Origin: Psilocybe cubensis
Taxonomy: Eukaryota
Assembly: GCA_017499595.2 (NCBI GenBank)
Contig: CM039005.1
Location: 2,914,001-2,978,000 of the forward strand
DNA length: 64,000 bases
Reading direction: 5' to 3'
Each line of letters opens with the position of its first letter. Position 1 is the stretch's first letter. Below, piece by piece: positions 12,607 to 58,497 of this stretch. The translations under genes were made by a program, and so were the position numbers. A model generated the notes under the pieces. It was not told the origin of the DNA, searched no databases, and worked only from the letters and a program-made list of their open reading frames with translations.

Positions 12607-13930
12607 CTATGTGTACATCAAGTCAGCTAAGCGATGTACCTCGTATACCTCCGCTCCCAAGGGATCATCCCACTCAGCCCCGTCCTCGTCATCTAGTCGG
12701 TCTTCCCATACCTCGATATCTCTGAGCGAATATTCGTCCGATACGTCACCTCCAATTACATGAACTTTCACACAATGAAGAAAATGGGCGATGAGGAAAA
12801 TATCATCCGGTCCTTGTCTGTCTTCCCGGTGGAAAAACGGTCTCTCCAGTCCTTGTAGAAATTTCCCTGTATCTCCAAGGTCGTAGAACAGAACAATTCG
12901 ATAATTGTCCTGTGATTAACGATATGAAATGGCAACGACATAACGAATGTATCTGTCAACTTACCTCAACGTCAACTCCAAATGCGTTATCATTCAAGGC
13001 CTCAATTAAATCCTTGCGCAGTGTGATTGCATTGGATACAACACATGCCTCCGAGTAGTTGTTGAATTTACGTGGATCTTGGGATGCATCTTTCAACTAT
13101 TGGGAAAAATAATCCTATTTCAGGCTGACGGAATAATGGACGCGTTGCTTAGACATACCGCGTCTATCATGGCTGGAGGTATAAGCCACGTAATTGCGAC
13201 CTCGTGTTCTCCGCAAGCTCCAGTTATGACGCAGTGGCCTTTATCCCGCTCAGCAACTGCCCGCTCAATTTCTTCAGGCATGGCATACTTTATTGACACC
13301 CATGATATTGGGTATTAATTTAGCATTATGAATATGCTACCGGATTTGCTTACCCAAGGCATCATCTCAGCATTACGAAAAAGATTGAAACGGTCATTTG
13401 GTGCAGGATTTTCGATCACTCTCCTGATCGTAGTAAATGATCTATCGCCGATGGAGCAATCAAATATAATAAGTGACCCCTCTGCAAAGAAAACATTGAT
13501 ATTTCATTGTGCTGAAACTCTGCAGGAGAGAGAAACTTACTCGGGTTGTACAAATTGTAGTCTCCTGGGAGAAGTATTTCGGTTGAACCCGGGGGCCAAA
13601 TGTTTCGACCAACTCGTTCTCTGTTGTAAAACAACGGTAAACCAGGTACTTTCTCAACCTTTACAGGAAATAATCCAAATTCCTTTCTTTCCCTGTCTAT
13701 CAGACGTATCCATCTATCAAGAGTGGCGACGCTTATGGGTGTTATGAGATGGTTTACACCTGACACAATGTAAGGGCCATTTCAACATGTTGGAGCAGTT
13801 ACTGACCTCCAATCAGACGTTGGCCTCCAACTGCCCAGATGAATACATCCTTTTTGAGTTTTCTAGACTTGGTTGACAAAAGATGGGCTGGTTTATAGGT
13901 ACTTTCTGATAAATCTGATGCTTGTGACAT
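12607..13930 (-). CDS. Pseudo-HNH family protein, copy A (6 exons, most divergent member)
   Basis: Spliced: MSQASD..KDVFIW..RLIGG / ..LLPGDY / .. / RDKGHCVITG..ITWLIPP / SNAITLRKDLIEALNDNAFGVDVE / DNYRIVLF..GPDDIFLIAHF..GGD..*. No internal stops found. Confidence 0.8.
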
Positions 13931-14156
13931 GATAAACTGGAGTGGGTTTTGGGCGTGATTGGGGACCGTACATCTAAACGATACTCGCAATTATCACTCT
14001 CATCACATTTTTAAGTTCAAACCCCGACAGCTTGAATTATCGTATTAATTTAGAGTTCGCGTGGTACTCTGCCAACTAAAGAAATGGTGAATTATTTTAC
14101 AGAGTGTTATACATCCAATTCCAATATCCAGTGTATTCCTCTGAGCTAAATAACTT

Positions 14157-14400
14157 CAATCGATTTCTCCTTCATCAACATCTTCATAATAATCGTCTTC
14201 GGTATCACTGTTATCTACATGGGGCCCAAAGGACTTCCATGATGCTTCTCATGTAGATAAAGACTCATCTCATCCTACCACAGCGCATCTTGACTGGAAA
14301 TGTGTATTTCTCCCTGAATAATGCCATGATCAGATAGCCGTTGGCCTACATCATGAGATTTTGTACGTCATTTTTAAACATAAATAAAAGCATGTACCTA
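14157..14400 (-). pseudogene. Relic last exon of a pseudo-HNH family gene
   Basis: Reads ISSQDALW*DEMSLYLHEKHHG, frameshift, FGPHVDNSDTEDDYYEDVDE. Matches the family tail LWxDELSxxxYE..PFGP..DNSDTE. Confidence 0.65.
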
Positions 14401-14583: not shown

Positions 14584-16036
14584 TTACGCGTTTACATCAT
14601 CTCCATATTCGTCTATATTGGAAACGTCGTCCATTTCATCGATAGGTTCATCCGAGCTATCCCAAGAATCCTCGTCTGCTGCATCATCGTCGGATTTATA
14701 AGGTGAATCATAATAGTACTGGTATATCACCCGACTCAGCTCTTTTTTCCACAGGGGATGGTTATGCGGAAGCGGACGCCTCTCGCCATCAAGCCTCAAA
14801 ATTTGCATTTGTCGATCAACTACCTCCCGTGTGTATTGTCGAGTAATGTCCCCGCCGTATAAATTGACATACAGACAGTGTAAGAAATGCGCTCGAAGAA
14901 AAATATCATCCGGTCCCTTGAACCGGTCCCGATTCATGGGCTGTTTGAAATAGGGCCGGATATTTGTGGCACCCTTGAATGGTTCGCCTATTGGACCAAT
15001 ATCACGGAATAGCACAACGCGATAGTTGTCCTGCTCCATCAGGTTAGGTAATGTGTCATGGTGGCATGAAATAACTCACATTGACATCAATGCCAATGGC
15101 GTTCTCAAAAAACGCATCGGCTAAATCCTTTTGCAATGTTATAGCATTTCCTGGAATATATAACTGATTGGGGTCCTTGTATTCACTTTCATATTCTAAC
15201 TGTTTCATCTGTGAGGACAAGGACAATACATGGCTTTAGCATGGGCATGCGTAACAACGAAACAATATAATTCATACCACTTCCACAAAGGGTGGCGGAA
15301 CTAGCCACGCAGCAGTGACTACTTCTGCATTGGTAACTCCAGTTATCATACATTGACCGTGGTCACGACGCATTACTGAATTGATGATAATGTCATTAAG
15401 CTCGAACTAAAACACATCATAGGTTAGATTTACACTCATATGCAAGAGAACTTTGCTTGACTGACAAGAGGCATATACTCTGGTTCGACCCTCACCATCC
15501 AGCGTGCATTCGGCTGTTCAGCGTCGTACTTCCTTTCCTTGAAGGATGGTACACCGGAAACAATTTTGAAAGGATTGGAGAAAGGACCTATTGCGGAATA
15601 TTAGTATGCATTCCTCGAATTCAATGCCCCGAAAACTCACTGGATGGAATATCAAAATCGTAGTCTCCAGGCGGAATAATGTCCGTTGAATCCGCTGGTA
15701 TATTATCTCCACTGCGCGTACGATAGCAATTAAACAACCCACGGCCCTTTTCGACCGTCACGGGATATATTTCAAAGTCAAGGCAGTCCTCGTCAACGAA
15801 ACGACCCCAGTCATGCAGGATTTTGCTGCTAATCGGAGTGATCTCCTGATTAAGACCTGATAGTTCAGAGAATGAGATCTGTTGAGCGAGCTTTGAATGA
15901 GTTTTCACTTTCCTCCAATCAACAGTTGTCTAGTTGGAGACCAAAAAAACGTGTCACGATTCCGTTCTCGTGATACCTTCGAAAGCATATGGACTGGCTT
16001 GTATTTTGATGCTTGCGTGTTGTCGGGTTGAGACAT
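14584..16036 (-). CDS. Pseudo-HNH family protein, copy B
   Basis: MSQPDN..RDTFFWSPTRQLLIGG / ..IIPPGDY / RDHGQCMITG..AAWLVPP / GNAITLQKDLADAFFENAIGIDVN / DNYRVVLF..DIFLRAHF..acidic tail. Intron positions shared with paralogs. Confidence 0.85.
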
Positions 16037-18838: not shown

Positions 18839-19124
18839 ATATTGCTCCTGTGTGGATGTAGCGGTGGATTGACGGAATCGGCGGAGAGGCTTGGGTGGTA
18901 GATATAGTTCGAGATCGAGGACAATGAAATTATCTTAGTAACAAAAAATTACTACTACCTTATCTATGTGATGGCATCGCCGTGTTTGTTTGTTTGCTTG
19001 TGCGTGCTCGTCGGGTCTTGGCTTTGCGGAATCACCGTGCCTTTTCTCTTACCTCCCACCAACTATGGGCTATTCAATGCAAATTCGACGCTTACCCGCG
19101 TCTGATTGATCAAGTTAAAGTCTT

Positions 19125-19656
19125 TCCTTGCGAAGCGTGATAGCATTAATTGATTTGTAGAGTTCCCCCATTGCGCTGTACGCGCTTCCGCCTTCCACAT
19201 AATTCATCTTGTTATACGGAATTAGTACCCAAGGTCGAAGAATGACAAACAAGATCCCTTACCGCATAAATTAATGGAGGTGGAACTGCCCATACGACAG
19301 AAACTACGTCGTTTCCCGAAACGCCAGTAACTACACATTGACCGTGATCTCTTTGCAGAACATGCTTCTGGACATCGTTGGGTACGTCAAACTATTGAAC
19401 TTGTCAAGTATTTCCTAGAATTTGTAATTGGGGGATATTGCTTACCTTGACCACTTCTTCTGGTCTGACGGTGTAAATCAAGACTGCGTCTGCCTTTGGA
19501 AGTGTGGTTAAATATTTGACTTTCGTAATGAGACGTATGTTTTTACATGGACTTAACGTGTACTTTCTCGGAACTAAGCTTACTAGATACGCGTGCATCT
19601 GCATTTTCCTCATCATGCTTTCCACTTTCAGGTTTGTTTTTCTCCGAATCCGACAT
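19125..19656 (-). pseudogene. Internally deleted, 3'-truncated pseudo-HNH copy D-prime
   Basis: Inverted copy of the 56952-58497 gene. It lacks about 0.5 kb (equivalent to ~57083-57590) and everything after NAITLRK. Confidence 0.85.
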
Positions 19657-19983
19657 TTGATCTTTTGCGCCTAACGAATCGCTGAGAAAAGGCAGATAAA
19701 TCGATGGCTTTACGTACGGTGAGCAAGGCTATCATGTTCCTCACATTCCCACAGTTATAATACCTGTCTGATGATGCCGCGCGGCTCGGAGTGTGATTGT
19801 GAGCTATATATTCGAACTCCGAATGCTCGGCCATAAGTAAAAACTTAGTCTCGTACCCATTTTTTCAATTTTGTAGTACCGGCAAGGATATTTTAGTCCT
19901 AGTACTGATACTAGTAGTAAGTGAATTGTGAGAATTTGATGATCACCAATATAATGAATAGTGCCGATAATCGTCCATCTCCA

Positions 19984-21574
19984 ATGTCCATCGCCCTACC
20001 GAGCACCCCAGCCAGCGTCGGCAGTAAACACACACAAGAGCCTGCTATGCCAGAAGATGAAAATCAACTCCCTAACGAGGATCAATACCAGCCACAACAC
20101 GTACTCTCAAAAGTATCGAAGACACTCGGAAAAGACACGTTTTTCTGGGCACCAACCAGTCAGCGACTCATCGGCGGTAAGTTAGAGGGCTCGTACTCAT
20201 GGTCTTGTATGTTCGCGCTAATGGTATTCTCAGGGCTGAACCACAACGTCACGCCAGTCAACAGCAAAATTCTACACACGTGGGCCACTCTTCTTGATAC
20301 CACCAACGACCGCCGTGTCAGGTTCGAGATATATCCCGTGCAGATCACCAAAGTTCCAATTGGACTATTCTACTACGAGCGATATCGGAGCGGGGAGAAT
20401 GTCCCGGAAATGTCGACTGAGCCGCTGCCCCCTGGAGACTACGACTTTCAAGTTTTTGCAAGTGAGCACCTCCTTTCGTCGTTTCGTATATTATTGTGTT
20501 TGTTTTGCAGACTGTGTAATTTTTCGATGAGGCAGATACGAAAATCGATCCTATAGCTCCTACGAGTAACATACTATCTTTCAAACAAATCAAATATCAA
20601 TCGACATTGCCAAAAGAGAAATCCTGGCTGCTTCGGCCTGTGGCTCCTGAAATGATGTACATGGTGAGATTTTATATTCATTCAATAAAATAGACTCATA
20701 GAAATGACATTTTCGCGACAGTTTGACGTCCCAGACGATATTCAGAAGGAGGTCATCGAACGTGACGGCGGACGGTGTCTCATTTCCGGCACTGCGGGAG
20801 ATGATGAAATCACTGTTGTATGGGCGATTCCACCTCCTTTACCGTTTGCTGTGAGTGCAATCCTCCATTGTCAAAAGTTCTATGGGCTGATTCTCGAAAA
20901 TTTAGATGAGGTATGTCGATGGTGGTGGTGTATACAAATCAACCACGGAGCTTTACAAGTCCGACAATGCATTTACGCTTCGCAAGGACTTGGCGGATGC
21001 TTTCCTTGACGGGGCTTTTGGCGTTGACGTAGATGTCAGTATCCCGCTACTTGTTTTCCTAAGCTAGAAAACTAATCAGCATGAAATGACATGCATCCAC
21101 TTTCAGGACGACTATCGCATCGTGGTACTCAAAAACTTCGGACCAGCGGCACAACCACTCATCGGACCCAATATCCAAGCCTACTTCCATCACCCAGGCG
21201 TCAAAGCCCAATTCAAAGTCGGACCCAAGGACATATTCCTCCGCGCGCACTTCGTCAACTGCCTCTACATAAACTTCCAAGGCGGCGACATCGTGACCCA
21301 GTACCCAACGCACATCGTAGAAGAACGAGAAAAGCTTCTGGGGTTCTATCCCGGCGAATCGCGTGTTTCCCGGAGGAGTAGGCTGTGGGGTGATGAATTG
21401 AGCCAGTTGATATATGAGCATTACTATCAAAGGCCGTTTGGGCCTGACTCGGACAACAGCGATACGGAGTTTGAGTACGAGTCGGATTTGGACGAGGAGC
21501 TTGTAATTGGGTGTAGCGGGAACTATGAAGATGAGGGTGATCTAGGTAATACCAATGTCAGAGATTCAAAGTAA
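19984..21574 (+). CDS. Pseudo-HNH family protein, copy E
   Basis: MSIALP..KDTFFWAPTSQRLIGG / ..PLPPGDY / RDGGRCLISG..VVWAIPP / DNAFTLRKDLADAFLDGAFGVDVD / DDYRIVVL..DIFLRAHF..DSDNSDTEFEYESDLDEE. The start could be the upstream ATG near 19954. Confidence 0.85.
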
Positions 21575-32732: not shown

Positions 32733-32820
32733 CGGTTTGCCATATCATCATCCTCTATACTCGACAGCGTTCGTCGACTACTGGTCCCGTTACACAATTG
32801 TTATAGTCGCCATTCGAGAA

Positions 32821-41192: not shown

Positions 41193-43021
41193 GGGTGGGA
41201 TGTGTGGGGGTGGGCGTGGGCGTTGGGGGTGGGGTGGGAGTGGGGGTGGGGTGTGTACCTGGGTCACTTTGAGGGAGGGAGAGTGTGGAGGCTTGGAGGG
41301 TGTGTGTGCTTTTTTCGTTCGTTGATTTCATTTGTCGGTTGTCGTTCGCAAGTCGTTTCTTCCCTTTTGTTTGATTCTGGATTATATGTGTGGTGTAGAT
41401 TTCTTTCTTCTCTTCCATCTTGTTCCTACTTCTGGTTCTGTTCCTGTGCATTTTTCATGTTTTTTTTTGGTTCCGACTAGCTGATCTTCTTTTGATGTAT
41501 TCGAGTTCGAGTTCGAGGTTTGTTGTTTGTGAATTTTTTGGATTTTTTTTCGTTGTTTTGCAATCCGTTATTCAAATATTCAAGTTTTCTTTCGAATGTG
41601 GTCCCTTTCCCTTCGTCTCTGTTTCTCTGTTTCTCTGTTTCTCTCATAATCCGTCTGTCTCTCTCCGATTTCTAATTTCTGACTTCTGATTCTATTTTCC
41701 TTGTGAGTCTGGTTCTGTTCACGATTCACGATGCATGATGTTTCCGTTTCTCGGTTTTTGCCTGCTTTTATGATTTCTTTTTTTTTGGTATTCCACAATC
41801 CCACAATCCCACATACCGTAATCTGCAATCTACACTCTGCAACCCTGCAATCCACAATCCGTAATCATGACCTCACTCTCCGATTTTCTCTTCCCTGCTG
41901 TGTTATACCGTCGTGTTTGTTTTTATTATCATTTGACGATACTGTCTCTATCTCAGTCTCCGTCTCTCTCTCTCTCTCTTCCAGTCTTTGTTTCTCTCAG
42001 TCTTTGTCTCTCTCAGTCTTTGTCTCTCTCTTGTCTTTTTTATCCATTTGCAATTTCCTGTTCTCCAATCCCATTTCCATCTCCCATCTCCCATCTCCCA
42101 TCTCCCATCGAAGTCTTATTCTCCGTTCACCGCTCACCGCTCGACACTCACCGCTCGACACTCGTTTTTTTTATTGGTGATTTTACTACGTACTACGTAC
42201 TACTATTGTTGACTTTCTTTTCGTTTTAATTAACACCCCGATTATTCGTACTCTACACCGCCTATGGCTCACTCGCTCGCTTATTTCTGTTTTAATTGGT
42301 ATACATAGCTATAGATACGTACGTAAAACTACAAAGTATGAGGTATGAGGCACGAGGCACGAGGTAAAGTAGCAAGTAGCACTAGCAAGTATAACTATAA
42401 GCCTGAGTACACCAGACACACTCGTTTAACGTTTAATTCCCATTTTTCTGACAAAATTTTTAGACTTTGGGGATGTGCATTGTGTCGTTCTGTCGTTCTG
42501 TCGTGAGATTTGTTTGGCAGGTTAAACGTGGATTTGCTGTTTGAAGTTTGAAGTGTTGCCGATGCGTGTGGTTACAATTATTCACCTCTTAAAAATGGCG
42601 TCAAAATGATATTTTTATTGACTACGTCGACGTATATACCTTACTGTTTACTTTGAATTTCTGGCATTGGTATCACCTAAATCACCCTCATCTTCATAGT
42701 TTCCGCTCCACCCAATATCAGGTTCTTCGTCCAAGTCCGACTCGTACTCAAACTCCGTATCACTATTGTCCGAGTCAGGCCCAAACGGCCTTTGATAGTA
42801 ATGCTCGTATATCAACTGGCTCAATTCATCCTTCCACAGCCTACTCCTCCGGGGGACCGCTCCTTGATCCGCTACCACCACCTTCAGCGCAATTCCCACG
42901 CGTCTCGCACGCCTGGAAACGACTGTAAGGCAGTATAAGCATTCGAGTAGAGCAATTAAAACACACACACGCACCTTAAAACCTTCAAATATCGCACTAT
43001 CACACATATATTCACACCGAA

Positions 43022-44611: not shown

Positions 44612-45445
44612 ATCAGATGAGTACCAATTCCTCGACAGAACAGGCAAACTCCCAGATCAGAATCCTACAGATAAACCTCAACAAGTCTGAAGTTGCGCAC
44701 CTCGAACTGATCAACGATGATCTCCACGAGCGATTTGACGTTGTGCTAATACAAGAACCACACACCACCCACTTCAAAAATATTCGTACCAACAACAACT
44801 TCCGGCAAGTATATCCTGGAAACCGCAACACGTCAACACCGCGCTCTGGAACGTGGATCAACAAACGACTCAACACCAACAACTGGAGCGAGATCGTCTT
44901 CCCAGATACGGGCGACCTGACCGCAGTACGGATTCAGTGCGAAAGAGGTATAATCTTCATTTTTAATATTTATAATCCTGGACACGAGGGACATACCATC
45001 CGAACGTTACACCAGTATCTGCTCGACAACCGCAATACCATGATGCAGGTAGGCACGCACATGATATGGGCAGGCGATTTCAATCTACACCACCCGATGT
45101 GGGACCGTGATGAAGACACACGTCTCTTCACAAGGACTGCATTAGCGGATGCCGAAAAGCTCATTGAACTGGTAGACACGTACAACATGGCTATGGCACT
45201 GCCAAAAGGACACCCCACGCTCGAACACATGGTCACGAAGAAGCTGTCAAGACCCGACAACGTCTTCTGCTCAGATGGCCTACTCCCGTTTGTCACAAGC
45301 TGCGAAGTCAGGTACGACCTACGCCCGACCAATACAGACCACTACCCAGTCATCACAACAATTGACACAACATACGTTAAATCTGTCGATGTGCCTACCC
45401 GGAACTTCAAACTGGTCGACTGGGAAAAATTCAACAAGACGCTAA

Positions 45446-45895
45446 TGTCAGGGTTTCTCCAGTTTCCCCTCTTTATCTTCACAGAATTATCTTATCCTTT
45501 CATTATCTTATCAATTATCTGATTAGATAGTTTATTTCTTTCATCACAGCCTTCTTGCTCCACTTCTTTCTAGTAAATTCTATATGATTCCTAGTCTTAC
45601 TCATCCTTTTTCTATATGATGTCACTTTTATTCTTTAACCTTCCTTTATGATGTAATGTAGGGAATATTCTAGAATAGCTGTAGAGTATAAATACTGGAC
45701 TTGTAGGTAGCTGTAGCTTCAGCTTCAATCTCTTAGGATATCCACTATCATTGGTGTGATCTCTTAGAACCATTGAATCTCTCTCACTCTCTTATTCTCT
45801 CTTTGCTCTCTTACTCTCCCTCTGCTCTCTCTTTCTCTTTCTTGCTTAATCTTTGTTGGTGGCCTTGTCACACTGATTATAGTGTTGCCCTGACA
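45446..45895 (+). repeat. 5' LTR
   Basis: Termini TGTCAGGG...CCCTGACA; TATAAATA at 45687-45694. Confidence 0.97.
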
Positions 45896-45897
45896 GA

Positions 45898-45908
45898 AGA
45901 TTGAAGCT
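45898..45908 (+). other. Self-priming primer-binding site
   Basis: AGATTGAAGCT, 2 nt after the LTR, is the exact reverse complement of AGCTTCAATCT at 45721-45731, just downstream of the LTR TATA box. Confidence 0.8.
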
Positions 45909-46400
45909 CTCTCAAGACAACTCCACCATCTCTCTTTCAACACCAAACTCTTCACCTCTTCAACCTCTTCAACACCATCACCTCAACCTTCTTCCTCCAC
46001 TTCCAACCCACCAACCTCTTCATCAACCTCTTCACCAATCTTCTTACCAATCTCTACATCTCCACCAATCTTCAACATCCTCCTCAAAACCTTTCCTCAA
46101 GACCTTTCCTCAAGACCTTTGGCTCATCATCTTTCCTACTCTCTGTTGTGTGCTGTGTGTGAACTTAGTAGATAGGGATACCAACTGTTGGGGCAGACAC
46201 AGTCCTACTAGTGTTCTGTTTTTGGTGGTCTAGGAAATATCCAGTAATCCTGTGATCCTAGGTTTAGAGCCCTGAGTGGTGTGACAACTGGGTATCCAGT
46301 AGATAGATATTTTTTTTAGAATACTTAGTATAGTTTCAAGGGCACTTTCAGTAGATAGCTTCTCCCACACACACATCAGAGAGCCTACCTACCCCTACCC

Positions 46401-47510
46401 ATGGACATGGACCCCTCCCAATTGCCTCCCACCACTCCTTCTGTGGAAGAGCTCATGCATCAGGTCCAGCTCCTTACCCAAGAGTTGAATTTTCTTAGAC
46501 AGCAGCAGCAGTCATTATCCACTCCACCACACCCTCAGCAACCAGTCAGTCAGTCACCATCACCACCACCACCACCACCACCTGCTGCTCTAGATATTCA
46601 CTCTTTCCCTACTCCTCATGTTGCCCCTTCCTGTTCACACTCTGCCATTAAAGTCTCACCTCCAGATCCATTTGATGGTTCTATGGAGAAGGCAGAAAAC
46701 TTCCTCAGTCAGCTTAAATTATATTTCTATGGGAAAGGGATTACAGATGACTTTCAGAAAGTTATTTGTGCTCTATCTCATATGAAAGGAGGTACTGCTG
46801 GGAAGTGGGCATATGAGAAGACTAAAGTAATAGACAATGCTCAGTCCCAAGAAGGTCTTTGGGCTGATTTTGTTTATGAATTTAGGGAAGTGTTTGCAGA
46901 TCCAGACCCCTCCAACACAGCTAAGCATAAAATGCACATGCTCAAGCAAGGCAGACAGACTGCTGATGAGTATGTTGCTAGCTTCAGGGCTCTGATCTCA
47001 GATACTGGGTATAATGATGCTGCTTTGGTAGACCAATTCAAGGCTGGGCTTAATGAAAATCTTAGGAATGCAGTCTACTATGTTCCTGACATGCCCAAAA
47101 CCTTGGATGGATGGATTAAATGGAGTACTAGGCTAGATAGGCAGTGGAGACAGAGTGAGGCCTTTACCAAGTCTCTTTCCTCCTCCTCTTCTTCTCCCTT
47201 CCTTAAAGCCCCAACTCCCAAGGCTGTTCCTAAGCCTACTCCAAATCCTCCAGTCTTTTCCAACAGCAGCTCAAGGACCTTTGGTGCTCAGGCAAAGCAA
47301 CCAGATGTAGTTCCCATGGAGGTTGACTCTGGATGGAAGTCAGTTAGGCCAATTGTTTGCTTCAAGTGCAGAAAACCTGGTCATAAGGCTGTAAACTGCA
47401 GGTCATCAGTTAACATCAATGCTATGACCCATGAAGAACTGGCTGACTACTTTGGGAAATTAATCTTGGAAGGCAAGGAGCAGAAAGATGAGGAAAAGAA
47501 AAATTTTTAG
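46401..47510 (+). CDS. gag: Gypsy Gag (369 aa)
   Basis: PDPFDGS, retrotransposon capsid segment LKQG..ADEYVASF, PMEVD, zinc knuckle CFKCRKPGHKAVNC. Confidence 0.95.
   Translation: MDMDPSQLPPTTPSVEELMHQVQLLTQELNFLRQQQQSLSTPPHPQQPVSQSPSPPPPPPPAALDIHSFPTPHVAPSCSHSAIKVSPPDPFDGSMEKAENFLSQLKLYFYGKGITDDFQKVICALSHMKGGTAGKWAYEKTKVIDNAQSQEGLWADFVYEFREVFADPDPSNTAKHKMHMLKQGRQTADEYVASFRALISDTGYNDAALVDQFKAGLNENLRNAVYYVPDMPKTLDGWIKWSTRLDRQWRQSEAFTKSLSSSSSSPFLKAPTPKAVPKPTPNPPVFSNSSSRTFGAQAKQPDVVPMEVDSGWKSVRPIVCFKCRKPGHKAVNCRSSVNINAMTHEELADYFGKLILEGKEQKDEEKKNF
47501..47507 (+). other. -1 ribosomal frameshift slippery heptamer A AAT TTT
   Basis: X XXY YYZ pattern immediately before the gag TAG. pol is in the -1 frame and open through this site. 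Confidence 0.75.
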
Positions 47511-47518
47511 AAGCACCA

Positions 47519-50500
47519 TTGGTGAAAGACATGTCCCAATGGAATAGATTTAATGTACTAGAAAATGAAATTGACAGACTTGATCCTCAGTCTTCAGATT
47601 CTGGTGCAGAAATCATGTCTTCTTCTTCCTCTCTTTCTACCTTCCCTGAAAAGATCTACATCCTCAACCATAATCCTAAAACCTCTACCCATTTGTCTGT
47701 CATCTTAAAGACAATGGACACAGAGAAAAGGTTATCTGTTGATGCTTTGCTTGATTCTGGAGCTACTGGCCTCTTTCTGCATTCTGGTTTTGTGAAGTAT
47801 CATAATCTCAACACAAGGAAACTTCCTAGAGCCATTCCAGTCTATAATGTTGATGGTACTCTCAACAAGAGTGGCTCTATCCATGAGGAAGTAGACTTAA
47901 TTATGGTACACAAAAACCATACAGAAAGGGCCACCTTTGCTGTTTGTGACTTGGGAGACAAATCTGCTATCATTGGACATACTTGGCTTTGGCACCATAA
48001 TCCAGATGTTGATTGGAAGACAGGGGATGTCCAGTTTATTAGATGTCCCTCTGACTGCCAAATGGAAGCCAAAAGAGCCAGAAGAAAGAGGCAGAGAATA
48101 GCTGCAGTCAAAAGGAGGAAACTCCCTCAATTTGATGAAGAAGAAGATGATTCTATTGAAGATTCTTCTGATTCTGAGATTGAGCCTGAGGATAGAATTT
48201 TTATCTCATACCTTCATCCTCAGAAGCAGTCTATTAATGCTACTTCTACTATGTCTCAAAGATTAGCAGAAGAGTCTCATCAGCAAGCTGATTCCCCTAA
48301 GAAAACCTTTGAAGAAACTGTTCCTAAGCACTATCATCAGTTTAAAGGTGTTTTTTCAAAGGAATCTTTTGATAGGCTACCAGACAGAAAGCCTTGGGAT
48401 CATGCTATTGAGCTGAAACCTGGTTCTGAACCTTACAGATCCAAGATTTATCCTCTTTCTCCCAATGAACAAAAGGAACTTGATGCCTTTTTAGAGGAAA
48501 ATCTGAAGTCTGGCAGGATTAGACCCTCCAAGTCACCTATGGCCTCCCCTGTATTCTTTGTCAAGAAGAAGGATGGATCTCTTAGGCTTGTCCAGGACTA
48601 TAGGAAACTGAATGAAATGACCATCAAGAACTCCTACCCCCTTCCATTGATTTCTGACATCATCACCAAACTCAGCAAAGCCAAATACTTCACCAAACTT
48701 GATGTTAGGTGGGGATTTAACAATGTCAGAATCAAAAAGGGAGATGAATGGAAAGCAGCCTTTAGAACCAATAGAGGGCTGTTTGAACCATTGGTCATGT
48801 TCTTTGGTTTAACCAATAGTCCTGCTACCTTCCAAACTATGATGAATGATATCTTTATTGAGCTCATTGATGGAAATGTTGTCATTGTCTACATGGATGA
48901 CATTTTAATTTTCACTGAGACTCTTGATCATCATAGAGAGGTAGTCAAGCAAGTTCTGCAAATCTTAGAACAGAACAAACTCTACCTTAAAGCAGAGAAA
49001 TGTGAATTTGAAAAGGAAAAGATTGAATATCTTGGACTAATCATTTCACAAGGCAGGATTGAGATGGATCCTGTCAAGGTAGAGGGAGTTTCTAAATGGC
49101 CTGAACCTGAAAATGTCAAGGATGTCCAATCATTCTTGGGATTTGTTAATTTTTATAGAAGGTTCATAGAGGATTTTGCAGACATTGCTAAGCCCCTTCA
49201 TGAATTGACAAAGAAAGGAACAGTCTGGAGATGGAGTCTTAGACAGCAGGAAGCCTTTGACCAGTTAAAGAAGAAAGTCACTTCTTCACCTGTCTTGATT
49301 TTCCCTGATGATAACAAGCCATATAAAGTTGAAGCAGACAGTTCAGATTATGCTACTGGGGCTGTTTTATCTCAGGAAGGATCAGATGGGAAATGGCATC
49401 CTGTAGCCTTTATGTCTAAGAGTCTATCTGAAGTAGAAAGGAATTATGAGATCCATGACAAAGAGATGCTGGCTATTATCAGAGCACTAGATGAATGGAG
49501 ACATTATCTTGAAGGAACCCAACATTCCTTTGAGATTTGGACAGACCACAAAAACTTAGAGTACTTTATGGTTGCCCAAAAGCTCAGCAGAAGGCAAGCC
49601 AGATGGTCACTCTTCCTGTCCAGATTTGATTTTACTCTTCATCATAGGCCTGGTAAAAGATCTCTTAAGCCAGATGCTTTGTCTAGGAGACCAGATCATA
49701 AAAAGGGAGAGAATGATAACCAAAATGTAGTTCTCCTCAAACCTTCCTACTTTAAAATCCAGGCTCTCAAGCAGGGCCATGCTACCATTACTGGTGCAGA
49801 AAATGATCTTCTTAAGAAGATTAGAGAAGCTAAGGAGATGGATGAAAAGGTGGTCAAGGCAGTTCAGGAGCTCAAGAAATCTTCTACCAAGAAGATTGAA
49901 GGACAGGAATGGTCAGAAGAACAAGGCCTTATTCTCTACAGGGGGAAGGTGTATGTTCCCAAGGACAAAGATCTTAGAAGAAAGATTGTGGAACTGCACC
50001 ATGATGCCTTCATTGCTGGACATCCAGGGAAATGGAAGACAATTGAGCTAGTCTCTAGGAATTATTGGTGGCCAGGAATGTCACATTTTATTGCAGCCTA
50101 TACCAGAGGTTGTGATAGATGCAACAGAACCAAAACCTTTCCAGCCAAACCTCTTGGCCTTTTAATTCCTACTGAGATTCCCTCTGATGTCTGGCAATGC
50201 ATCTCTGTGGACTTTATTATGGGGTTACCAGAATGTCAAGGGTATAATGCCATTATGGTGGTTGTGGATAGACTTAGTAAAATGATCCACATTATCCCTA
50301 CTACAGATGAAGTCACTTCTGAAGGGACAGCCAGACTATACAGAGATTATATCTGGAAACACCATGGCTTACCCATTAAAATTCTGTGTGATAGAGGTCC
50401 ACAGTTTGTCTCAAGGTTTATGAAAGAACTCAACTCAATACTTGGTATCCAGACAGCCTCATCTACAGCCTACCATCCCCAAACTGATGGTCAGACTGAA

Positions 50501-51388
50501 AGAGTTAACCAAGAAATTGAGCAGTATCTTAGACTCTTTATAAACCATAGACAAGATGATTGGGTTGAATGGTTAGCTCTAGCTGAATTCTCTTATAACA
50601 ATAGAGTTCAGGCTTCAACCAGGCAGACACCATTCATGCTCAATAATGGCAGACATCCCAGAATGGGCACTGAACCCCTTAGAGATAGTAAAATGGACAC
50701 TGTGGATACCTTTGTGAAAAATATGGAAGAAGCCAGAAAAGAAGCAGAGTCTGCACTTAGAAAAGCTGCTGATGATATGGCTAAATTCTATAATAGACAC
50801 AGAGGTACTCCAACTCAGTACAAAGTTGGGGATTTGGTATGGTTAGATGGCAAGGACCTCAAAACTGATAGGCCCTCCAAGAAATTGGATGATAAAAGAT
50901 ATGGGCCTTACAAAATTACCAAAGTTATTAGCCCTAATGCCTATGAGCTTAAGCTGCCATCTACCATGAAAATCCATCCAGTGTTCAATGTGGTTAAACT
51001 TCTACCTTATTACCCAGATATTGTAGGAAGAAAGCCTCCTTCTAGACCACCTCCTGTCATTCAAGGAGAAAATCCTGAGTGGGAAGTTGAATTTATCAAG
51101 GACAGCAGACTTTTTAGAAACAAACTTCAATATTTGGTCAAGTGGAAGAACTATCCTAATGAAGAATGCACTTGGGAGCCTGCAGAGCATTTGAAAAATG
51201 CTTCTAAGGCTATCAAGGACTTCCATGCCAAACATCCTTCAGCACCTAGAAGGATTTCTGCTGTGACCTTTGATAGACTTTCTTTCACTCCTATTATTAA
51301 CTTTACTGAACCTCCTCCTCTTCTTAAACCCTCTAAACTAACCCATCCATGTGCACATTGTGGAAAATGTGCCTTAGAGAGGGGGTGA
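47519..51388 (+). CDS. pol: Gypsy Pol polyprotein with chromodomain
   Basis: Protease LLDSGA, RT YMDD, RNase H ADSSD..RNY..KE, integrase H..H..CDRC, DF..DRG..E, GPY, chromodomain WEVEFI..YLVKWKNY..TWEP. Confidence 0.97.
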   Translation: MVKDMSQWNRFNVLENEIDRLDPQSSDSGAEIMSSSSSLSTFPEKIYILNHNPKTSTHLSVILKTMDTEKRLSVDALLDSGATGLFLHSGFVKYHNLNTRKLPRAIPVYNVDGTLNKSGSIHEEVDLIMVHKNHTERATFAVCDLGDKSAIIGHTWLWHHNPDVDWKTGDVQFIRCPSDCQMEAKRARRKRQRIAAVKRRKLPQFDEEEDDSIEDSSDSEIEPEDRIFISYLHPQKQSINATSTMSQRLAEESHQQADSPKKTFEETVPKHYHQFKGVFSKESFDRLPDRKPWDHAIELKPGSEPYRSKIYPLSPNEQKELDAFLEENLKSGRIRPSKSPMASPVFFVKKKDGSLRLVQDYRKLNEMTIKNSYPLPLISDIITKLSKAKYFTKLDVRWGFNNVRIKKGDEWKAAFRTNRGLFEPLVMFFGLTNSPATFQTMMNDIFIELIDGNVVIVYMDDILIFTETLDHHREVVKQVLQILEQNKLYLKAEKCEFEKEKIEYLGLIISQGRIEMDPVKVEGVSKWPEPENVKDVQSFLGFVNFYRRFIEDFADIAKPLHELTKKGTVWRWSLRQQEAFDQLKKKVTSSPVLIFPDDNKPYKVEADSSDYATGAVLSQEGSDGKWHPVAFMSKSLSEVERNYEIHDKEMLAIIRALDEWRHYLEGTQHSFEIWTDHKNLEYFMVAQKLSRRQARWSLFLSRFDFTLHHRPGKRSLKPDALSRRPDHKKGENDNQNVVLLKPSYFKIQALKQGHATITGAENDLLKKIREAKEMDEKVVKAVQELKKSSTKKIEGQEWSEEQGLILYRGKVYVPKDKDLRRKIVELHHDAFIAGHPGKWKTIELVSRNYWWPGMSHFIAAYTRGCDRCNRTKTFPAKPLGLLIPTEIPSDVWQCISVDFIMGLPECQGYNAIMVVVDRLSKMIHIIPTTDEVTSEGTARLYRDYIWKHHGLPIKILCDRGPQFVSRFMKELNSILGIQTASSTAYHPQTDGQTERVNQEIEQYLRLFINHRQDDWVEWLALAEFSYNNRVQASTRQTPFMLNNGRHPRMGTEPLRDSKMDTVDTFVKNMEEARKEAESALRKAADDMAKFYNRHRGTPTQYKVGDLVWLDGKDLKTDRPSKKLDDKRYGPYKITKVISPNAYELKLPSTMKIHPVFNVVKLLPYYPDIVGRKPPSRPPPVIQGENPEWEVEFIKDSRLFRNKLQYLVKWKNYPNEECTWEPAEHLKNASKAIKDFHAKHPSAPRRISAVTFDRLSFTPIINFTEPPPLLKPSKLTHPCAHCGKCALERG
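51376..51385 (+). other. Polypurine tract
   Basis: AGAGAGGGGG lies 3 nt before the 3' LTR. Confidence 0.8.
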
Positions 51389-51838
51389 TGTCAGGGTTTC
51401 TCCAGTTTCCCCTCTTTATCTTCACAGAATTATCTTATCCTTTCATTATCTTATCAATTATCTGATTAGATAGTTTATTTCTTTCATCACAGCCTTCTTG
51501 CTCCACTTCTTTCTAGTAAATTCTATATGATTCCTAGTCTTACTCATCCTTTTTCTATATGATGTCACTTTTATTCTTTAACCTTCCTTTATGATGTAAT
51601 GTAGGGAATATTCTAGAATAGCTGTAGAGTATAAATACTGGACTTGTAGGTAGCTGTAGCTTCAGCTTCAATCTCTTAGGATATCCACTATCATTGGTGT
51701 GATCTCTTAGAACCATTGAATCTCTCTCACTCTCTTATTCTCTCTTTGCTCTCTTACTCTCCCTCTGCTCTCTCTTTCTCTTTCTTGCTTAATCTTTGTT
51801 GGTGGCCTTGTCACACTGATTATAGTGTTGCCCTGACA
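51389..51838 (+). repeat. 3' LTR
   Basis: No differences from the 5' LTR found by eye. Confidence 0.97.
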
Positions 51839-54800
51839 GCTAAGAGCACGCCTTAGACGTGAACAACAACCAGGACCGATCCGCTCGCCGGAGGAAATCG
51901 AGGAATCAGTGCACGTACTGACTCGGGCTTTGCAAGACACGATCGTGAAAGAGGTCAAGCTGCGCAAGCCGTTGCCAGACAAGAAGTGATGGTGGACAGG
52001 TGATGTAGAAGAGGCAAAACGGTACAAAAACAGGCTGAGCAGTTTACATCACAGGTTCCGGGCGCTGCCAGACCATCCCTGTCACCTTGAATACAAAGCA
52101 GCAAAACGGTCGTTTGCAAGGTTGGTAATCGAGGCAAAGAAGACGCACTGGGAAGAGTGGCTACTCGAAGCAGAAGGCGGCGATATTTGGACAGCAAACC
52201 GGTACTTCAAGAACCCGACAGGAGACGGAGGCAGACCACGCATTCCATCCCTGCATGTCAGCAACGAGTACGAGGAGCTAGAAGAGGTAACCACTAATGA
52301 GGAGAAAGCTCAAGTTTTCGCTAGAGCCTTCTTCCCCAAAAAGCCACTCCACTCGTCGGTCCCACTCGACTACCAGTATCCGGAAGCACTACCCGACCTG
52401 GGGGCAATCACAAGAAGTCAGATCACCCGGCAACTTCGACGACTGTCACCACACAAGGCACCTGGAATCGATGAAATCCCCAACGTAGTGCTCCAGAAAA
52501 CGGCCCCAATTATTACAGACCACCTCTATCACCTGTACAATGCTATTCTGGATACAAACTACTATCCGGCATCGTGGAAACACTCGATCACGGTAGTTTT
52601 AAGAAAACCAGGTAAACCTAACTACAAGATTGCAAAAGCTTACCGTCCTATAGCCCTCCTCAACACTCTCCCAAAAGTGCTGACGGCGATAGTAGCGGAA
52701 CGCCTGAGTTTCATCACGGAAACTCACAATCTGCTCCCGGATACACACTTTGGAGGCCGCCCAGGTAGGACGACCTCCGACGCCATGCACTACCTTACCG
52801 AAAAAGTCAAATCTGCATGGAGAAGAGGTAAAGTAGCCTCAATCCTGTTCCTAGACGTCGAGGGCGCCTTTCCGAATGCGGTCACGGATCGTCTCCTTCA
52901 CAATCTGAGGAAACGCAGAATACCAAAGAAATATGTTGACTTCATCGCAAACCTACTCAAAGATAGGAAGACGAAACTGAAGTTCGACGATTTTATATCC
53001 GCTCTGATGAAAATCGACAATGGTATTGGCCAAGGTGACCCTCTCTCCATGATACTGTACATCATTTACAATGCAGATCTGCTTGAAATCGTCAACCGGG
53101 AGGACGACGAGGATGCGATTGGCTATGTCGACGATGTAACAATGATTGCAGTGGGAGATACAATGGACGAAACCACTGACAAGCTCAGCATTATCATGAA
53201 CGACGAAGGAGGGGCCCAGACATGGAGCGACGACCATAACTCAACGTTTGAAGTGTCGAAACTGGCGATAATGCATATGGACCCGCGCGACCCTGACACA
53301 CTGGATCATCCACGTCTGGAAGTGAAAGGGGAGTTGGTAAAACAGGTGAACCACTTTAGATGCCTTGGTTTTCAGATTGATTGTCGTCTGCAGTGGAAGG
53401 TGCACTTACAGAAGGCAACAGAGAAGGCAACAAAGTGGCTGTCGAACTTCCGACGGCTGTCCAAACCAAGCACGGGCATCCAACCCAAGCTAATGCGTCA
53501 ACTGTACATAGCGACGGTGATCCCAAGGCTCGCATACGGTATTGATGTTTGGTATACACCACCTACGAAACCAGCGGGATACCGCAGGAATACAGGGTCG
53601 GTAGCCGCGCTCCGACAAATGACAACGATACAGCGGAAAGCTACTCTCGTAATCACTGGAGCCATGCGGTCAACACCAACAGAGCTACTGGATGCCCATG
53701 CGGGCGTCCTGCCACTCGAACTCCTGCTGCTGAAGATTTGCCACAGAGCGGTAACGCGGATGTGCACCCTGCCAATGACGCACCCTCTCCACAAGGCAAT
53801 CCAGAGTGCAGGCACAAGAACTCAACGAAGGCACAGATCCCCAATATATCTACTGCTTAAAATCTTTGACATGGCACCCGAGTCAATGGAAACAATCTCT
53901 CCATTCACAATACCACCCACGTACAACCCTCCGTTCAAAATCGTTATCGCGAGAACTCGGAAGGAATCAATGCGAATTGAAAAGGAGTGCAAAGCTAAGT
54001 TCAGAATCTACTCGGATGGATCGGGTCATAACGGTCACGTAGGTGCTGCGGCCGTCCTATTGAAAACAAGGAAGGATCGACATGGGAAGGTACTCCGCAA
54101 ATACCTGGGCCCAAAAGAGAAACACAACACGTATGAAGCGGAGGGTGTTGGAAGCATCCTGGCCCTAGAGCTGGCTCGAAGCGAGAAACCAGAAGCAAAC
54201 GATGAAATCGCAATCTTTAGCGACAACCAGTCCCTTCTAACAAACTCAAACATGCCTAGAGCTAAGTCGGGTCAATATCTAGCACGGAAATTGATTGACG
54301 CAGCACAAGTCATACAGGGGAGGATTACACTGTACTGGATTTCCGGCCACTCAGATGTATTGGGTAATGAAAGAGCCGATGAAGAAGCGAAACGAGCGGC
54401 CGAGGGAGACAGCAGTCCGATGGAGGAGCTTCCGACATCTCTGCAGCACGCCCTACCCGCCAGCGCATCTGCAGAACGACAAGCCTATCACGTCGAACTA
54501 CTATCCATGTGGGAAGAACGCTGGAACGAGTCCAAACGAAAGGCGATATTCAACACAAAGAAGATCGACACCGAGTTCCCATTTACAAAATTCAGGAAGA
54601 CAGCACAGCGACTGAACAGAGCTCAAGCTAGCATCCTGGTACAACTACGCTCCGGACACGTAGCGCTGAACTCGCACCTCAGCAAATTCGATCCCAAGTT
54701 CACAAAACATTGCCCGAAATGCTACGAGCGACGAATGGGCGAACGGGCGACAGAAACAGTCAAACACTTCCTGTTCGAATGCAGGGCGCACAGCAGTCAA

Positions 54801-56951
54801 AGGCAAGAAATGTGGGCGGAGATCGGCGACAAAATCACGAATCTAGAGGATCTTACAACGAAATATGCGAATGCTAAAGCACTGGTGACATATATTGCAA
54901 AAACAAAGAGGCTAAAACGAACATACAAAGACGACATACTACTACGAGGACTGGAGGAGGAGGAGGACTAGGGAGGAGGGAACAAACACACAAAGTGGTC
55001 CAAGGGACCGCGAAGACAAAAGGAGGTCAAGGAGGTGGAATACACCAGGAGGGAAGGAACTGCCTAAAGGAGGCGCTGGAGGCGCTGGGCCAAACAACCC
55101 GGGGAAGGGGTTGGGTCTAGAGGGGGGACGAGAGGGCCCTCCGAGACGCAGGCACAGGCCGATGAAGGCAACCACGGGCTCGGGGAGTCTATAGGTAAAT
55201 TAGTAGTACTACGCCGAGGGAGGGATCCTCCCCTCAGAGGCGCTAACACAAAAATAAAAAAAAAAAATAAAAAAACTCCTCCGGGAAACACGCGATTCGC
55301 CGGGATAGAACCCCAGAAGCTTTTCTCGTTCTTCTACAATGTGCTTGGGGTACTGAGTGACGATATCGCCGCCTTGAAAGTTTATGTAGAGGCAGTTAAC
55401 GAAGTGCGCGCGGAGGAATATGTCCTTGGGTCCGATTTTGAACTGGGCTTTAAGACTCGGATGATGGAAGTAGGCTTGGATATTGGGTCCGATGAGTGGT
55501 TGTGCCGCTGGTCCGAAGTTTTTGAGTACCACGATGCGATAGTCGTCCTGAAAGTGGATGCATGTCATTTCATGCTGATTATTTTTCTAGCTTAGGAAAA
55601 CAAGTAGCGGGATACTGACATCTACGTCAACGCCAAACGCCCCGTCAAGGAAAGCATCCGCCAAGTCCTTGAGAAGCGTAAATGCATTGTCGGACTTGTA
55701 AAGCTCCGTGGTCGATTTGTATACACCACCACCATCGACATACCTCATCTAAATTTTCGAGAATCAGCCCATAGAACTTTTGACAATAGAGGATTGCACT
55801 CACAGCAAACGGTAAAGGAGGTGGAACTGCCCATACAACAGTGATTGCATCATCTCCTGCAGTGCCGGAAATGAGACACCGTCCGTTGTCACGTTCGAGG
55901 ACCTCCTTCTGAATATCATCTGGGACTTCTATCGTATGAATATAAAATCCCACCATGTACATCATTTCAGGAGCCACAGGCCGAAGCAGCCAGGATTTCT
56001 CTTTTGGCAATGTCGATTGATATTTGATTTGTTTGAAAGACAGTATGTTGCTCGTAGGAGCTATAGGATCGATTTTCTTATCTGCCTCATCGAATAATAT
56101 GCGCAGTCTGCAAAACAAACACAATAATATACGACAAAAGGAGGTGCTCACTTGCAAAAACTTGAAAGTCGTAGTCCCCAGGGGGCAGCGGCTCAGTCGA
56201 CATTTCCGGGATATTCTCCCCGCTCCGATATCGTTCGTAGTAGAATAGTCCAATTGGAACACTGGTGATTTTTACGGGATATATCTCGAACTTGACACGG
56301 CGGTCGTTGCTGGTATCAAGAAGACTGGCCCATGTGTGTAGAATTTTGCTGGTGATTGGCGTTACGTTGTGGTTCAGCCCTGTGGATGTCGTTATACCAT
56401 TAGCAACAAAAGACGATGGATGAATCATGAGCCTCTAACGCACCACCGATGAGTCGATGACTGGTTGGTGCCCAGAAGAACGTGTCTTTTCCGAGTGTCT
56501 TCGATACTTTTGAGAGTACGTGTTTTGGCTTGTATTGATCCTCGTTGGGGAGTTGATTTTCAGCTTCTGGCATAGCAGGCTCTTGTGTGTGTTTACTGCC
56601 GACGCTGGCTGGGGTGCTCGGTAGGGCGATGGACATTGGAGATGGACGATTATCGACACTATTCGTTGTATTGATGATCATCAAATTCTCACAATTCACT
56701 TACTACAAAAATATCCTTGCCGTTACTACAAAATTGAAAAAATGGGTACGAGACTTCACTAAGTTATTGCTTATTGGCCGAGCATGCGGAGTTCGAATAT
56801 ATAGCTTACAATCGCACTCCGAGCCGCGCGGCATCATCAGACAGGTATTATAACTGTGGGAATGTGAGGAACATGATAGCCTTGCTCACCGTACGTAAAG
56901 TCATCGATTCATCTGCCTTTTCTCAGCGATTCGTTAGGCGCAAAAGATCAA

Positions 56952-58497
56952 ATGTCGGATTCGGAGAAAAACAAACCTGAAAGTGGAAAGCATGATGAGG
57001 AAAATGCAGATGCACGCGTATCTAGTGAGCTTAGTTCCGAGAAAGTACACGTTAAGAAGACCAAGTGAAAACACGTCTCATTTCAGTTACACCCTCAGAA
57101 GTTGAGGCGCAATACCAGCCACAGCATATACTTTCAAAGGTATCCAAGGACCTCGGCAAGGACATTTTCTTCTGGACTCCAAAGAGTATGCACCTCATGG
57201 GCGGTGAGTAAGAGGTGTGGCCAGTATCGCAAGTATGTCGGCTGATGCTCATCGTAGGGTTGAACCATAATGTCACACCAATCAACAGCAGGATTCTGCA
57301 TCTTTGGGCCACTCTTCTCGATTTCAGAAAGGAACGTCGCGTCAAGTTCGAGGTATTCCCAGTGACAGTGAAAAGAATTCCTACCGGAATATTCCACCAC
57401 GAACGATATCGCAGTGGAGAGAACATCCCCGAGATGTCGACTGATACGCTGCCCCCTGGGGATTATGATTTCCATGTTTTTGGCGGTGTGTAAATTGCAT
57501 ATGGTATTGTATACGTACTCAAAGGATATTTAATTTGCAGAGAAAAAAATACATCCTTTTTATCCGACCTTTAACATTCCATCTTTTAAGAGAGTCAAAT
57601 ATTTAACCACACTTCCAAAGGAAGAAGCAGTCTTGATTTACACCGTCAGACCAGAAGAAGTGTTCATGGTAAGCAATATCCCCCAATATTAAATTCTAGG
57701 AAATACTTGAAAAGTTCAATAGTTTGACGTACCCGACGACGTCCAGAAGCATGTTCTCCAAAGAGATCACGGACAATGTGTAGTTACTGGCGTTTCGGGA
57801 GACGATGTAGTTTCTGTCGTATGGGCAGTTCCACCTCCATTAATTTATGCGGTAAGGGATCTGATTTGTCATTCTTCGACCTTGAGTACTAATTCCATAT
57901 AAAAAGATGAAGTATGTGGAAGGCGGACGCACATACAGCGCAATGGGGGAACTCTACAAATCAATTAATGCTATCACACTTCGAAAGGACCTCGCTGATG
58001 CTTTCCTTGATGGAGCTTTTGGCATCGATGTAGATGTCTGTGCTTGATATGCCTTATTTCTTCAAGACTTTACTTACTATGAATAACATTTGCAGGACGA
58101 TTACCGAGTTGTGGTACTCCGTAATTTCGGACCGGAGGCGCAGTCGCTCATTGGAACCAACATCCAAGCATACTTCCGTCAACCCGGCGCTAAGGATCGA
58201 TTTGAAGGACCTATGGACATATTTCTCCGTGCTCATTTCGCTAATTGCCTTTTTGTCAACTTTCAAGGCGGTGATATTGTCGATCAATACCCAATGCACG
58301 TTGTCGGTGAAAGATGTAACCGACTTGGTCTTTCTCTGGGTGAATCGCGCATTTCACGTCGGAGCAAATTGTGGAATGACGAATTGAGCCAGATTTTATA
58401 TGAACACTGTTACGGAAGGCCCTTTGGTCCTCATCCAGACAACAGTGATTCGGAGTTTCAATACGAGTCGGACTTGGACGAGGAGGGTTGGCAGTAA
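56952..58497 (+). CDS. Pseudo-HNH family protein, copy D (head-to-head with E-prime)
   Basis: MSDSEKN..(extra intron from ~57025)..KDIFFWTPKSMHLMGG / ..TLPPGDY / RDHGQCVVTG..VVWAVPP / INAITLRKDLADAFLDGAFGIDVD / DDYRVVVL..DIFLRAHF..DNSDSEFQYESDLDEEGWQ*. Confidence 0.85.

Follow-up and report, generated by a model that had tools for sequence, protein, structure and literature searches.

HNH enzymes depend on two histidines, which serve as the general base and as a metal ligand, and VcaM4I and TagI, whose HNH domains are the closest structural counterparts of the proteins described here, are active nucleases that carry N-terminal modified-base reader domains. The HNH_2 type of this domain (Pfam PF13391) is found in fungal proteins behind a DUF7881 domain (PF25324), as in the protein P0163 of Tuber brumale, and a comparable layout is seen in the Crinkler/CR-HNH effectors such as AeCRN13 and BdCRN13, in which a ubiquitin-like header is followed by an HNH-type domain. 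Table 1 of the classification of His-Me fingers places CR-HNH under PF13391, and that paper assigns 120 fungal proteins to one HNH_2 group and the CR-HNH effectors to another (PMC5714182); PMC5289972 describes the headers of Crinklers as ubiquitin-like and reports DNA binding by the CRN13 effectors via an HNH-like motif, and the header corresponds to Pfam PF20147 of the ubiquitin clan in PMC9815663, the available part of which leaves HNH unmentioned. Catalysis can also be lost from this fold, with Smad MH1 and the nuclease-like domain of ENPP being given, in PMC5714182, as inactive His-Me fingers that are kept for DNA or substrate binding. Here we describe an array of related genes in a stretch of 64,000 nucleotides (the window) from Psilocybe cubensis (assembly GCA_017499595.2, contig CM039005.1, positions 2,914,001 to 2,978,000 of the forward strand), the products of which combine a ubiquitin-like N-domain with an HNH_2-type domain bearing a Trp at the position of the catalytic His. 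We give a probability of roughly 0.6 to the reading that the genes belong to an old, Agaricomycete-wide, Trp-bearing branch of the DUF7881-HNH_2 proteins, which would act as non-catalytic binding modules and which has been amplified locally under purifying selection. To our knowledge, few pseudo-enzymes retain a nuclease fold, and those that do are informative.

The array consists of nine copies (c1 to c9) and one small fragment of a single six-exon gene (Table 1), its limits, 12607 and 58497, coinciding with the c1 and c9 stop codons. An earlier note on this DNA, made from its letters and open reading frames alone, had proposed about ten catalytically dead HNH-fold genes with common motifs, five common intron positions, a Trp for the catalytic His in every readable copy, and A, I, K, or E for the second His. 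These claims held. A six-frame motif scan found R[DE]xxxCx[IV][TS]G nine times window-wide, followed in 9/9 matches by W.[IVL]PP at a distance of 30 nt (ten codons); NA[IF]TL likewise has nine matches and is present in all nine copies, and D[IVL][FL]L..HF has seven, the copies without it being the truncated c3 and c6, which reads FLRAQL. The position of the general-base His is occupied by Trp in all nine window copies, and that of the second His by I (c1), A (c2, c4, c7, c8, and c9), K (c5), or E (c6). The same scan found no His-bearing relative in the window, in agreement with the statement that no active partner is visible there.

The gene structure was established from a hand-built model of c4, after which c4 or the closest database protein was aligned to every copy with a custom spliced protein-to-DNA aligner. 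All full copies proved to have the five intron positions in common, with c9 having one extra 5′ intron, and two of the resulting spliced models are exact matches of database proteins, P0003 (c5) and P0001 (c9); further protein matches are P0004 (c2), P0005 (c6, partial), P0011 (c1, partial), and P0002 (c8), and none for c4, c7, or c3 is among the matches listed. Searches with tblastn added the small fragment as well as a detached 3′ piece of c8, the limits of which are approximate. An open frame interrupted by GT-AG introns only is found in c1, c4, c5, and c9. The tally of the earlier note, seven full copies, one split by a long interspersed nuclear element (LINE), and two fragments, can therefore be kept, and its word "intact" is overly generous for c2, c7, and c6.

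Table 1. Gene copies, motif matches, and repeat features of the window (letters in brackets are those of the earlier note)
Feature	Position	Strand	Description
c1 (A)	12607..13930	-	intact, 344 aa, 6 exons, five GT-AG introns
C-terminal fragment of a further copy	14171..14358	-	tblastn; template residues ~347-409 in two overlapping frames; dead
c2 (B)	14584..16036	-	exons 2-6 open; intron-1 donor GA instead of GT
c3	19124..19819	-	dead remnant of a c9-like copy
c4 (E)	19954..21574	+	intact, 434 aa, five GT-AG introns
c5 (F)	30741..32266	+	intact, 410 aa; P0003; protein used for the structure model
c6 (G)	32821..34284	+	open 394-aa frame; two GC-AG introns required
c7 (B-prime)	38064..39523	+	inverted duplicate of c2; GA at intron-1 donor; exons 2-6 open
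Detached 3′ end of c8	42651..42853	-	tblastn, self-BLAST; left of the LINE insertion
c8 (E-prime)	55275..56666	-	5′ part of the c4 duplicate; last exon cut by the LINE
c9 (D)	56952..58497	+	intact, 401 aa, six GT-AG introns; P0001
R[DE]xxxCx[IV][TS]G matches	13219, 15338, 19323, 20761, 31438, 33491, 38733, 55864, 57762		six-frame motif scan
LINE splitting c8	42854..55274	+	Exo_endo_phos, RVT_1, RNase_H; poly(A) tail; target-site duplication CTCCTCCGGG
Ty3/Gypsy element nested in the LINE	45445-51839		gag, reverse transcriptase, RNase H, integrase, chromodomain
Inverted duplicate block	14591-16430 with 39516-37710		self-BLAST
Inverted duplicate block	17886-19014 with 60283-59157		self-BLAST; 96.7% identical
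Inverted duplicate block	19125-21379 with 57989-55275		self-BLAST
Inverted duplicate block	21369-23986 with 42853-40247		self-BLAST

The substitution by Trp reaches far beyond this locus. A HMMER profile made from three window proteins and run exhaustively against 1.84 billion representatives retrieved 202 proteins at E <= 1e-3, of which 91 also satisfy E <= 1e-10; the best 150 of the 202 were listed, and of 151 proteins collected by then 96 entered the alignment A2, with the 55 left out being mostly short fragments. In the 96 rows, column 197, that of the general base, reads W in 92, Y in 2, and V in 1, with one gap and no H, and column 237, that of the second His, is likewise devoid of H (0/96). 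Other residues are kept in most rows, namely N228 (93), C182 (91), D248 (90), R177 (85), R254 (83), G309 (82), H297 (78), D250 (74), and D310 (74). Rather than a peculiarity of the array, which is how the change from His to Trp had been presented, it is thus a hallmark of an old, Agaricomycete-wide family. Judging from these alignments, the whole branch has a near-invariant Trp in place of the general-base His and small, aliphatic, or charged residues in place of the metal-binding His, and it retains the other conserved residues of the fold (RD, C, TG, N, DxD, YR, LRxHF, and GGD). Since both His are replaced, the branch should be unable to work by the canonical His-metal nuclease mechanism.

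Organism names were found for 29 of the 30 representatives looked up, and all 29 belong to mushroom-forming genera (Agaricomycetes). Taxonomy was confirmed for four species; we take Hypsizygus, Gymnopilus, Armillaria, Mycena, Agrocybe, and Collybia to be Agaricales, and Laetiporus, Sparassis, Grifola, Pilatotrama, and Somion to be Polyporales, with Hygrophoropsis presumably representing the Boletales, Rickenella the Hymenochaetales, Plicaturopsis the Amylocorticiales, and Amylostereum the Russulales. For two pairs of family members, P0031/P0166 of Somion occarium and P0168/P0169 of Armillaria solidipes, the accession numbers are adjacent and each pair lies on one contig, which suggests that local arrays of the Trp-type family exist in other Agaricomycetes too. 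Some UniProt entries of the family bear the automatic name "HNH nuclease domain-containing protein", which the present results correct, and RDxxCxxTG...W[IV]xPP...NAxT[LM] can serve as a diagnostic of the Trp type. Full-text literature searches (PF13391; HNH_2 with fungi) returned no description of such a family, members of which may be mentioned in the Crinkler primary paper or in the supplements of PMC5714182; the searches likewise returned no paper on DUF7881/PF25324 and none combining "HNH nuclease domain-containing protein" with Agaricomycetes.

The relationship with canonical HNH_2 proteins rests on several comparisons, for which the outside tools were run on database proteins or on single exons, with the spliced proteins of c1, c4, c6, and c7 serving in custom scripts. 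In each protein an N-domain of the ubiquitin-like (beta-grasp) type is followed by a variable linker, an HNH_2-type beta-beta-alpha domain, and the C-terminal helical extension of the family (FLRxHF...GGD), to which most copies add an acidic Ser/Asp/Glu tail. Against Pfam HNH_2, with its cut-off of 21 bits, c6 (P0005) scored 29.6 bits, above the cut-off, c5 (P0003) 19.9 bits over profile positions 1-66 of 66, and c2 (P0004) 16.3 bits, below it. A word-indexed protein search without the 96-row profile matched just three window proteins, and it was with the 96-row profile that the canonical relative P0163 was found, along with P0131. In Pfam, P0163 reaches 99 bits with DUF7881 and 53 bits with HNH_2, and its alignment with A2 by hhalign (probability 98.7%, E 3.9e-16) extends over 228 columns, from the N-domain through the C-terminal extension. 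Here W197 falls on the His of VAHVFP, K237 on that of TMHALFD, and FLRAHF on LLRWHF, and the N-domain is matched to the DUF7881 region of P0163 (residues 9-80). P0163 and the array family thus share, in the same order, the beta-grasp N-domain, RDxxCxxTG, the N, DDxY[KR], LRxHF, and a Gly-rich motif (the array's FLRAHF...GGD aligning with LLRWHF...GAGE), whereas P0163 has kept both His where the array family has Trp and A, V, I, or K. The N-domain gave no Pfam match to DUF7881 at E <= 10 in P0001-P0003, and an Atlas feature search with this domain alone gave no usable match; among the structure neighbors in the Atlas, fungal HNH_2 and DUF7881 clusters were obtained with the whole protein and with the N-domain alone, the nearest structures for residues 23-130 being DUF7881 clusters with template modeling scores of 0.63 and 0.56.

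The fold itself was assessed on an AlphaFold2 model of c5 built on A2 (96 sequences), which has a predicted local distance difference test score (pLDDT) of 87.7 and a predicted template modeling score of 0.84; a 3-sequence alignment gave a pLDDT of 34.7. The modeled elements include strands 193-197 and 229-233 and the helix 234-241. When the model was compared with 48,161 chains by VIA-align, the first match was the HNH domain of VcaM4I (6yex_A; Z 10.2, root-mean-square deviation 3.0, 130 residues) and the second that of TagI (6ghs_A; Z 9.8, root-mean-square deviation 3.1, 111 residues, model residues 162-307), both at a sequence identity of 13-15%, and the next rows, at Z <= 5.6, were either ubiquitin-like folds matching model residues 28-124 or other HNH domains, such as those of GVE2, McrA, Cas9, and Cap5. 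Foldseek agreed weakly, with VcaM4I (6yex) as its best match (E 0.03, probability 0.97). The earlier proposals of a beta-beta-alpha HNH fold, of HNH_2 homology, and of the loss of both catalytic His are all borne out by these model and profile comparisons. The array proteins differ from VcaM4I and TagI in that the catalytic His are absent and the N-domain is ubiquitin-like, its matches being DWNN, UBX, and Ubl folds (Z 4-5.6), with no SRA or EVE domain among the matches listed.

Like other dead His-Me fingers, the proteins would function in binding without catalysis, with nucleic acid or the partners of their active relatives as the likeliest ligands; the Trp would fill or make use of the pocket of the former active site. 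Smad MH1 and ENPP offer a functional analogy in principle, since in them too the His-Me fold is kept and catalysis lost, whereas they belong to other His-Me groups and no specific similarity to the array proteins was found; Smad MH1 shows that a nuclease fold can turn into a DNA-binding regulator. The acidic tail, together with the lack of an obvious signal peptide, suggests a possible intracellular role. The family comprises no fewer than 202 sequence clusters from several agaricomycete orders, has a Trp fixed at the catalytic His position, and is under selection, and it raises the tractable question of what the ligand of a dead HNH domain in mushrooms may be.

Several results weigh against this reading. 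The Pfam HNH_2 scan gave no match for c9 (P0001) or c8 (P0002), and among 72 homologs just 3 exceeded 21 bits and 6 reached E <= 0.01; sequence searches of the PDB (with A1, A2, and P0163) remained at chance level (E 0.28-1.3). Three of the copies described as intact (c2, c7, and c6) have non-canonical features, and transcript evidence comes from c1 alone, at a low depth (5-8) and from a single run that is only guessed to be RNA. The role as a binding module is one that we infer, and the conserved polar residues D248, D250, R254, R295, H297, and D310 might, in principle, make up a different active site.

This last point leads to the possibility that the proteins are still enzymes, either nucleases or other hydrolases, with a site rebuilt from Asn228, Asp248/Asp250, His297, or Asp310 and with the Trp stacking on the substrate. 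The conservation of D248, D250, H297, and D310 counted above and the strong purifying selection described below are compatible with such a site, and PacI works with a Tyr replacing the catalytic His, as noted in PMC5714182. The same polar residues are, however, conserved in the His-bearing P0163 (DDEY, LLRWHF, and GAGE), and are therefore better regarded as family-wide structural features than as compensation. Moreover, both His are missing from 96/96 sequences and, by established chemistry, a Trp cannot act as the general base, so that we consider retained catalysis unlikely.

A second alternative, which takes up an idea of the earlier note, supposes that there are HNH_2 toxins or nucleases that still bear their His and are active, whether of the fungus itself or of its competitors, and that the proteins serve them as decoys, antidotes, or immunity partners. 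Such a role would fit the complete retention of the architecture of the active family, the lineage-specific expansion accompanied by gene death, and the succession of a ubiquitin-like header and an HNH domain, which is the layout reported for CR-type effectors (PMC5289972). The likeness to the Crinkler/CR-HNH proteins is nevertheless limited, in that the array has lost the catalytic motif together with both His and its host is a saprotrophic mushroom, and the resemblance of the N-domain to ubiquitin-like folds is at a Z of about 5. No Crinkler Pfam match was obtained at E <= 10 in P0001-P0003, including none to the header PF20147, the presence of which in the scanned set is unconfirmed, and no Crinkler cluster was among the Atlas matches listed. 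Furthermore, no His-bearing relative was seen in the window or among the best 150 of the 202 family matches, and the folded domains are evenly conserved, with no hypervariable surface evident. We therefore hold this alternative to be quite improbable. The roles as nucleic-acid sensors or non-self recognition factors, which the earlier note also suggested, are likewise conjectural. A broader proposal, to which we accord a low probability, would regard the large and ancient family of ubiquitin headers and dead HNH domains, derived from an active nuclease or toxin architecture, as non-catalytic guards in genetic conflict, that is, as sensors, decoys, or antidotes directed against foreign or damaged nucleic acid or against active HNH relatives, with the Trp serving for base stacking or as a plug and lineage-specific arrays like the present one as the diversifying repertoire.

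Returning to the reading of locally amplified binding modules, its evolutionary part was addressed with a maximum-likelihood tree of 80 rows, comprising eight copies from the window, 71 homologs with a length of 280 amino acids or more, and P0163 as the outgroup. All eight copies fall into a single clade (Shimodaira-Hasegawa-like approximate likelihood-ratio test 97), in which c1 branches off first and then c6, (c2,c7), and (c5,(c9,(c4,c8))); since the library was clustered at 50% identity, which hides close Psilocybe orthologs, the clade cannot be called species-specific. Ratios of nonsynonymous to synonymous divergence (dN/dS) were obtained by the Nei-Gojobori method, with most of the older pairs being saturated at synonymous sites. 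They amount to 0.27 for c2-c7 (dS 0.21) and for c4-c8 (dS 0.12), to 0.13 for c4-c9 (dS 1.63) and c8-c9 (dS 1.66), and to 0.53 for c3-c9 (dS 0.51), of which c3 is dead, and nonsynonymous change is significantly depleted in c4-c8 (Fisher p 4e-6) and in c2-c7 (1.5e-8). In the comparison of old paralogs the folded domains are 47-49% identical, versus 27% for the linker, and no hypervariable surface stands out. The copies of the array are thus held by purifying selection (dN/dS 0.13-0.27), while c3, the fragment, and c8 have died; the idea of birth-and-death evolution in the earlier note is upheld by a monophyletic local clade with one copy split by a transposable element and two dead pieces.

Expression was examined in two sequencing runs, X1 and X2, which bear no RNA label and the RNA nature of which is guessed; they were taken as RNA because their contigs skip three introns of a neighboring CAP-Gly/BTB gene that the DNA runs X3 and X4 retain. 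That gene is transcribed and spliced in both X1 and X2, with the three introns skipped at depths of 25-79. In X2, contigs bridge three of the five introns of c1 (joints 13096/13159, 13287/13354, and 13481/13541), and it is on these joints that the splice model of c1 rests. No X1 or X2 contigs were found on c2, c3, c4, or c5, which has no bearing on their expression. In the DNA run X3, two indels (at 13302 and 13496) were noted, both within introns of c1, in line with constraint on this copy.

These data also bear on the view that the array consists of decaying pseudogenes and has no function at present, a view which could appeal to the clearly dead c3, fragment, and c8 and to the splice or motif defects of c2, c7, and c6. 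The low dN/dS with its significant depletion of nonsynonymous change, the wholly canonical structure of four copies, the splicing of c1 in the RNA-like run X2, and the conservation of the family over several orders all run counter to it; neutral decay was accordingly rejected, and we regard it as extremely improbable.

The copies differ in their state of preservation. The most divergent one, c1, is without the acidic tail, and c3 retains the RDHGQCVVTG...WAVPP exon along with some of the next one, with two internal deletions relative to c9. In c6 the HF of FLRAHF is replaced by QL, and both of its GC-AG donors read GCAAGT. The pair c2/c7 is 88.6% identical in DNA over 1.85 kb, the change from GT to GA at the intron-1 donor being common to both; the annotated model of c2 (P0004) uses an alternative splice by which the conserved FFW segment is dropped. 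In c2 at 15857-16036 (-) and in c7 at 38064-38242 (+) we observed that the frame of this alternative model is open through the former intron 1, with the old intron being read in another frame and FFW being skipped. The altered 5′ region of c2 and c7 may thus represent a new 5′ gene structure instead of decay. In c8 the acceptor of intron 3 is lost, resulting in an in-frame read-through of seven residues, and the database model P0002 continues into the LINE.

The array grew by tandem duplication and by a large inverted segmental duplication, revealed by self-BLAST, in a transposon-rich region. The inverted blocks pair c2 with c7, c3 with c9, and c4 with c8, and also pair the neighboring CAP-Gly/BTB gene with its own partial copy. 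The long terminal repeats of the Ty3/Gypsy element, 452 bp each, are 100% identical and the element is flanked by the 5-bp target-site duplication GCTAA; its nesting within the LINE and the identity of the repeats indicate a very recent insertion. With these dated events, namely the LINE with its target-site duplication and the nested Gypsy element with identical terminal repeats, the locus offers a clean example of birth-and-death evolution.

So dense a set of transposons (LINE, Ty3/Gypsy, and inverted repeats) could also mean that mobile elements carry the genes as cargo or passengers, so that their copy number is due to transposition rather than to a host function, and a distant homolog, P0023, has a weak match to a hAT dimerization domain (E 0.004). 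The duplicated blocks, however, carry unrelated neighbors (the CAP-Gly/BTB gene and a family of open reading frames), which fits segmental duplication; the five introns are conserved, the old paralogs show constraint despite their saturation at synonymous sites, and the transposons break the genes instead of carrying them. Mobile-element cargo was rejected on the grounds of the segmental blocks, the conserved introns, the constraint, and the interruption of genes by transposons, and we consider it very unlikely.

Some further features of the window were recorded. The CAP-Gly/BTB gene (22963-28610, minus strand) is large, with a GC content of ~0.6, and has long open reading frames with a BTB domain (36 bits) as well as weak CAP-Gly matches (23.6 and 30.1 bits); the inverted partial copy of its 3′ part (40247-41995, plus strand) has 82-84% identity. 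The open reading frames at 17333-18482 (+) and 59157-60331 (-), which adjoin c3 and c9 inside the inverted duplication, contain an internal repeat (…DTADLEDS.DYLVIP.YS..PFGPDT.H.YLP…), have no Pfam match, and represent a small family that lacks annotation. Outside the array lies a further inverted repeat pair (3747-4456 and 5403-6110; 712 bp, 91.9% identity), and the open reading frame at 7072-7980 (-), apparently unrelated to the array, matches a zf-C2HC5 zinc finger with 27.8 bits.

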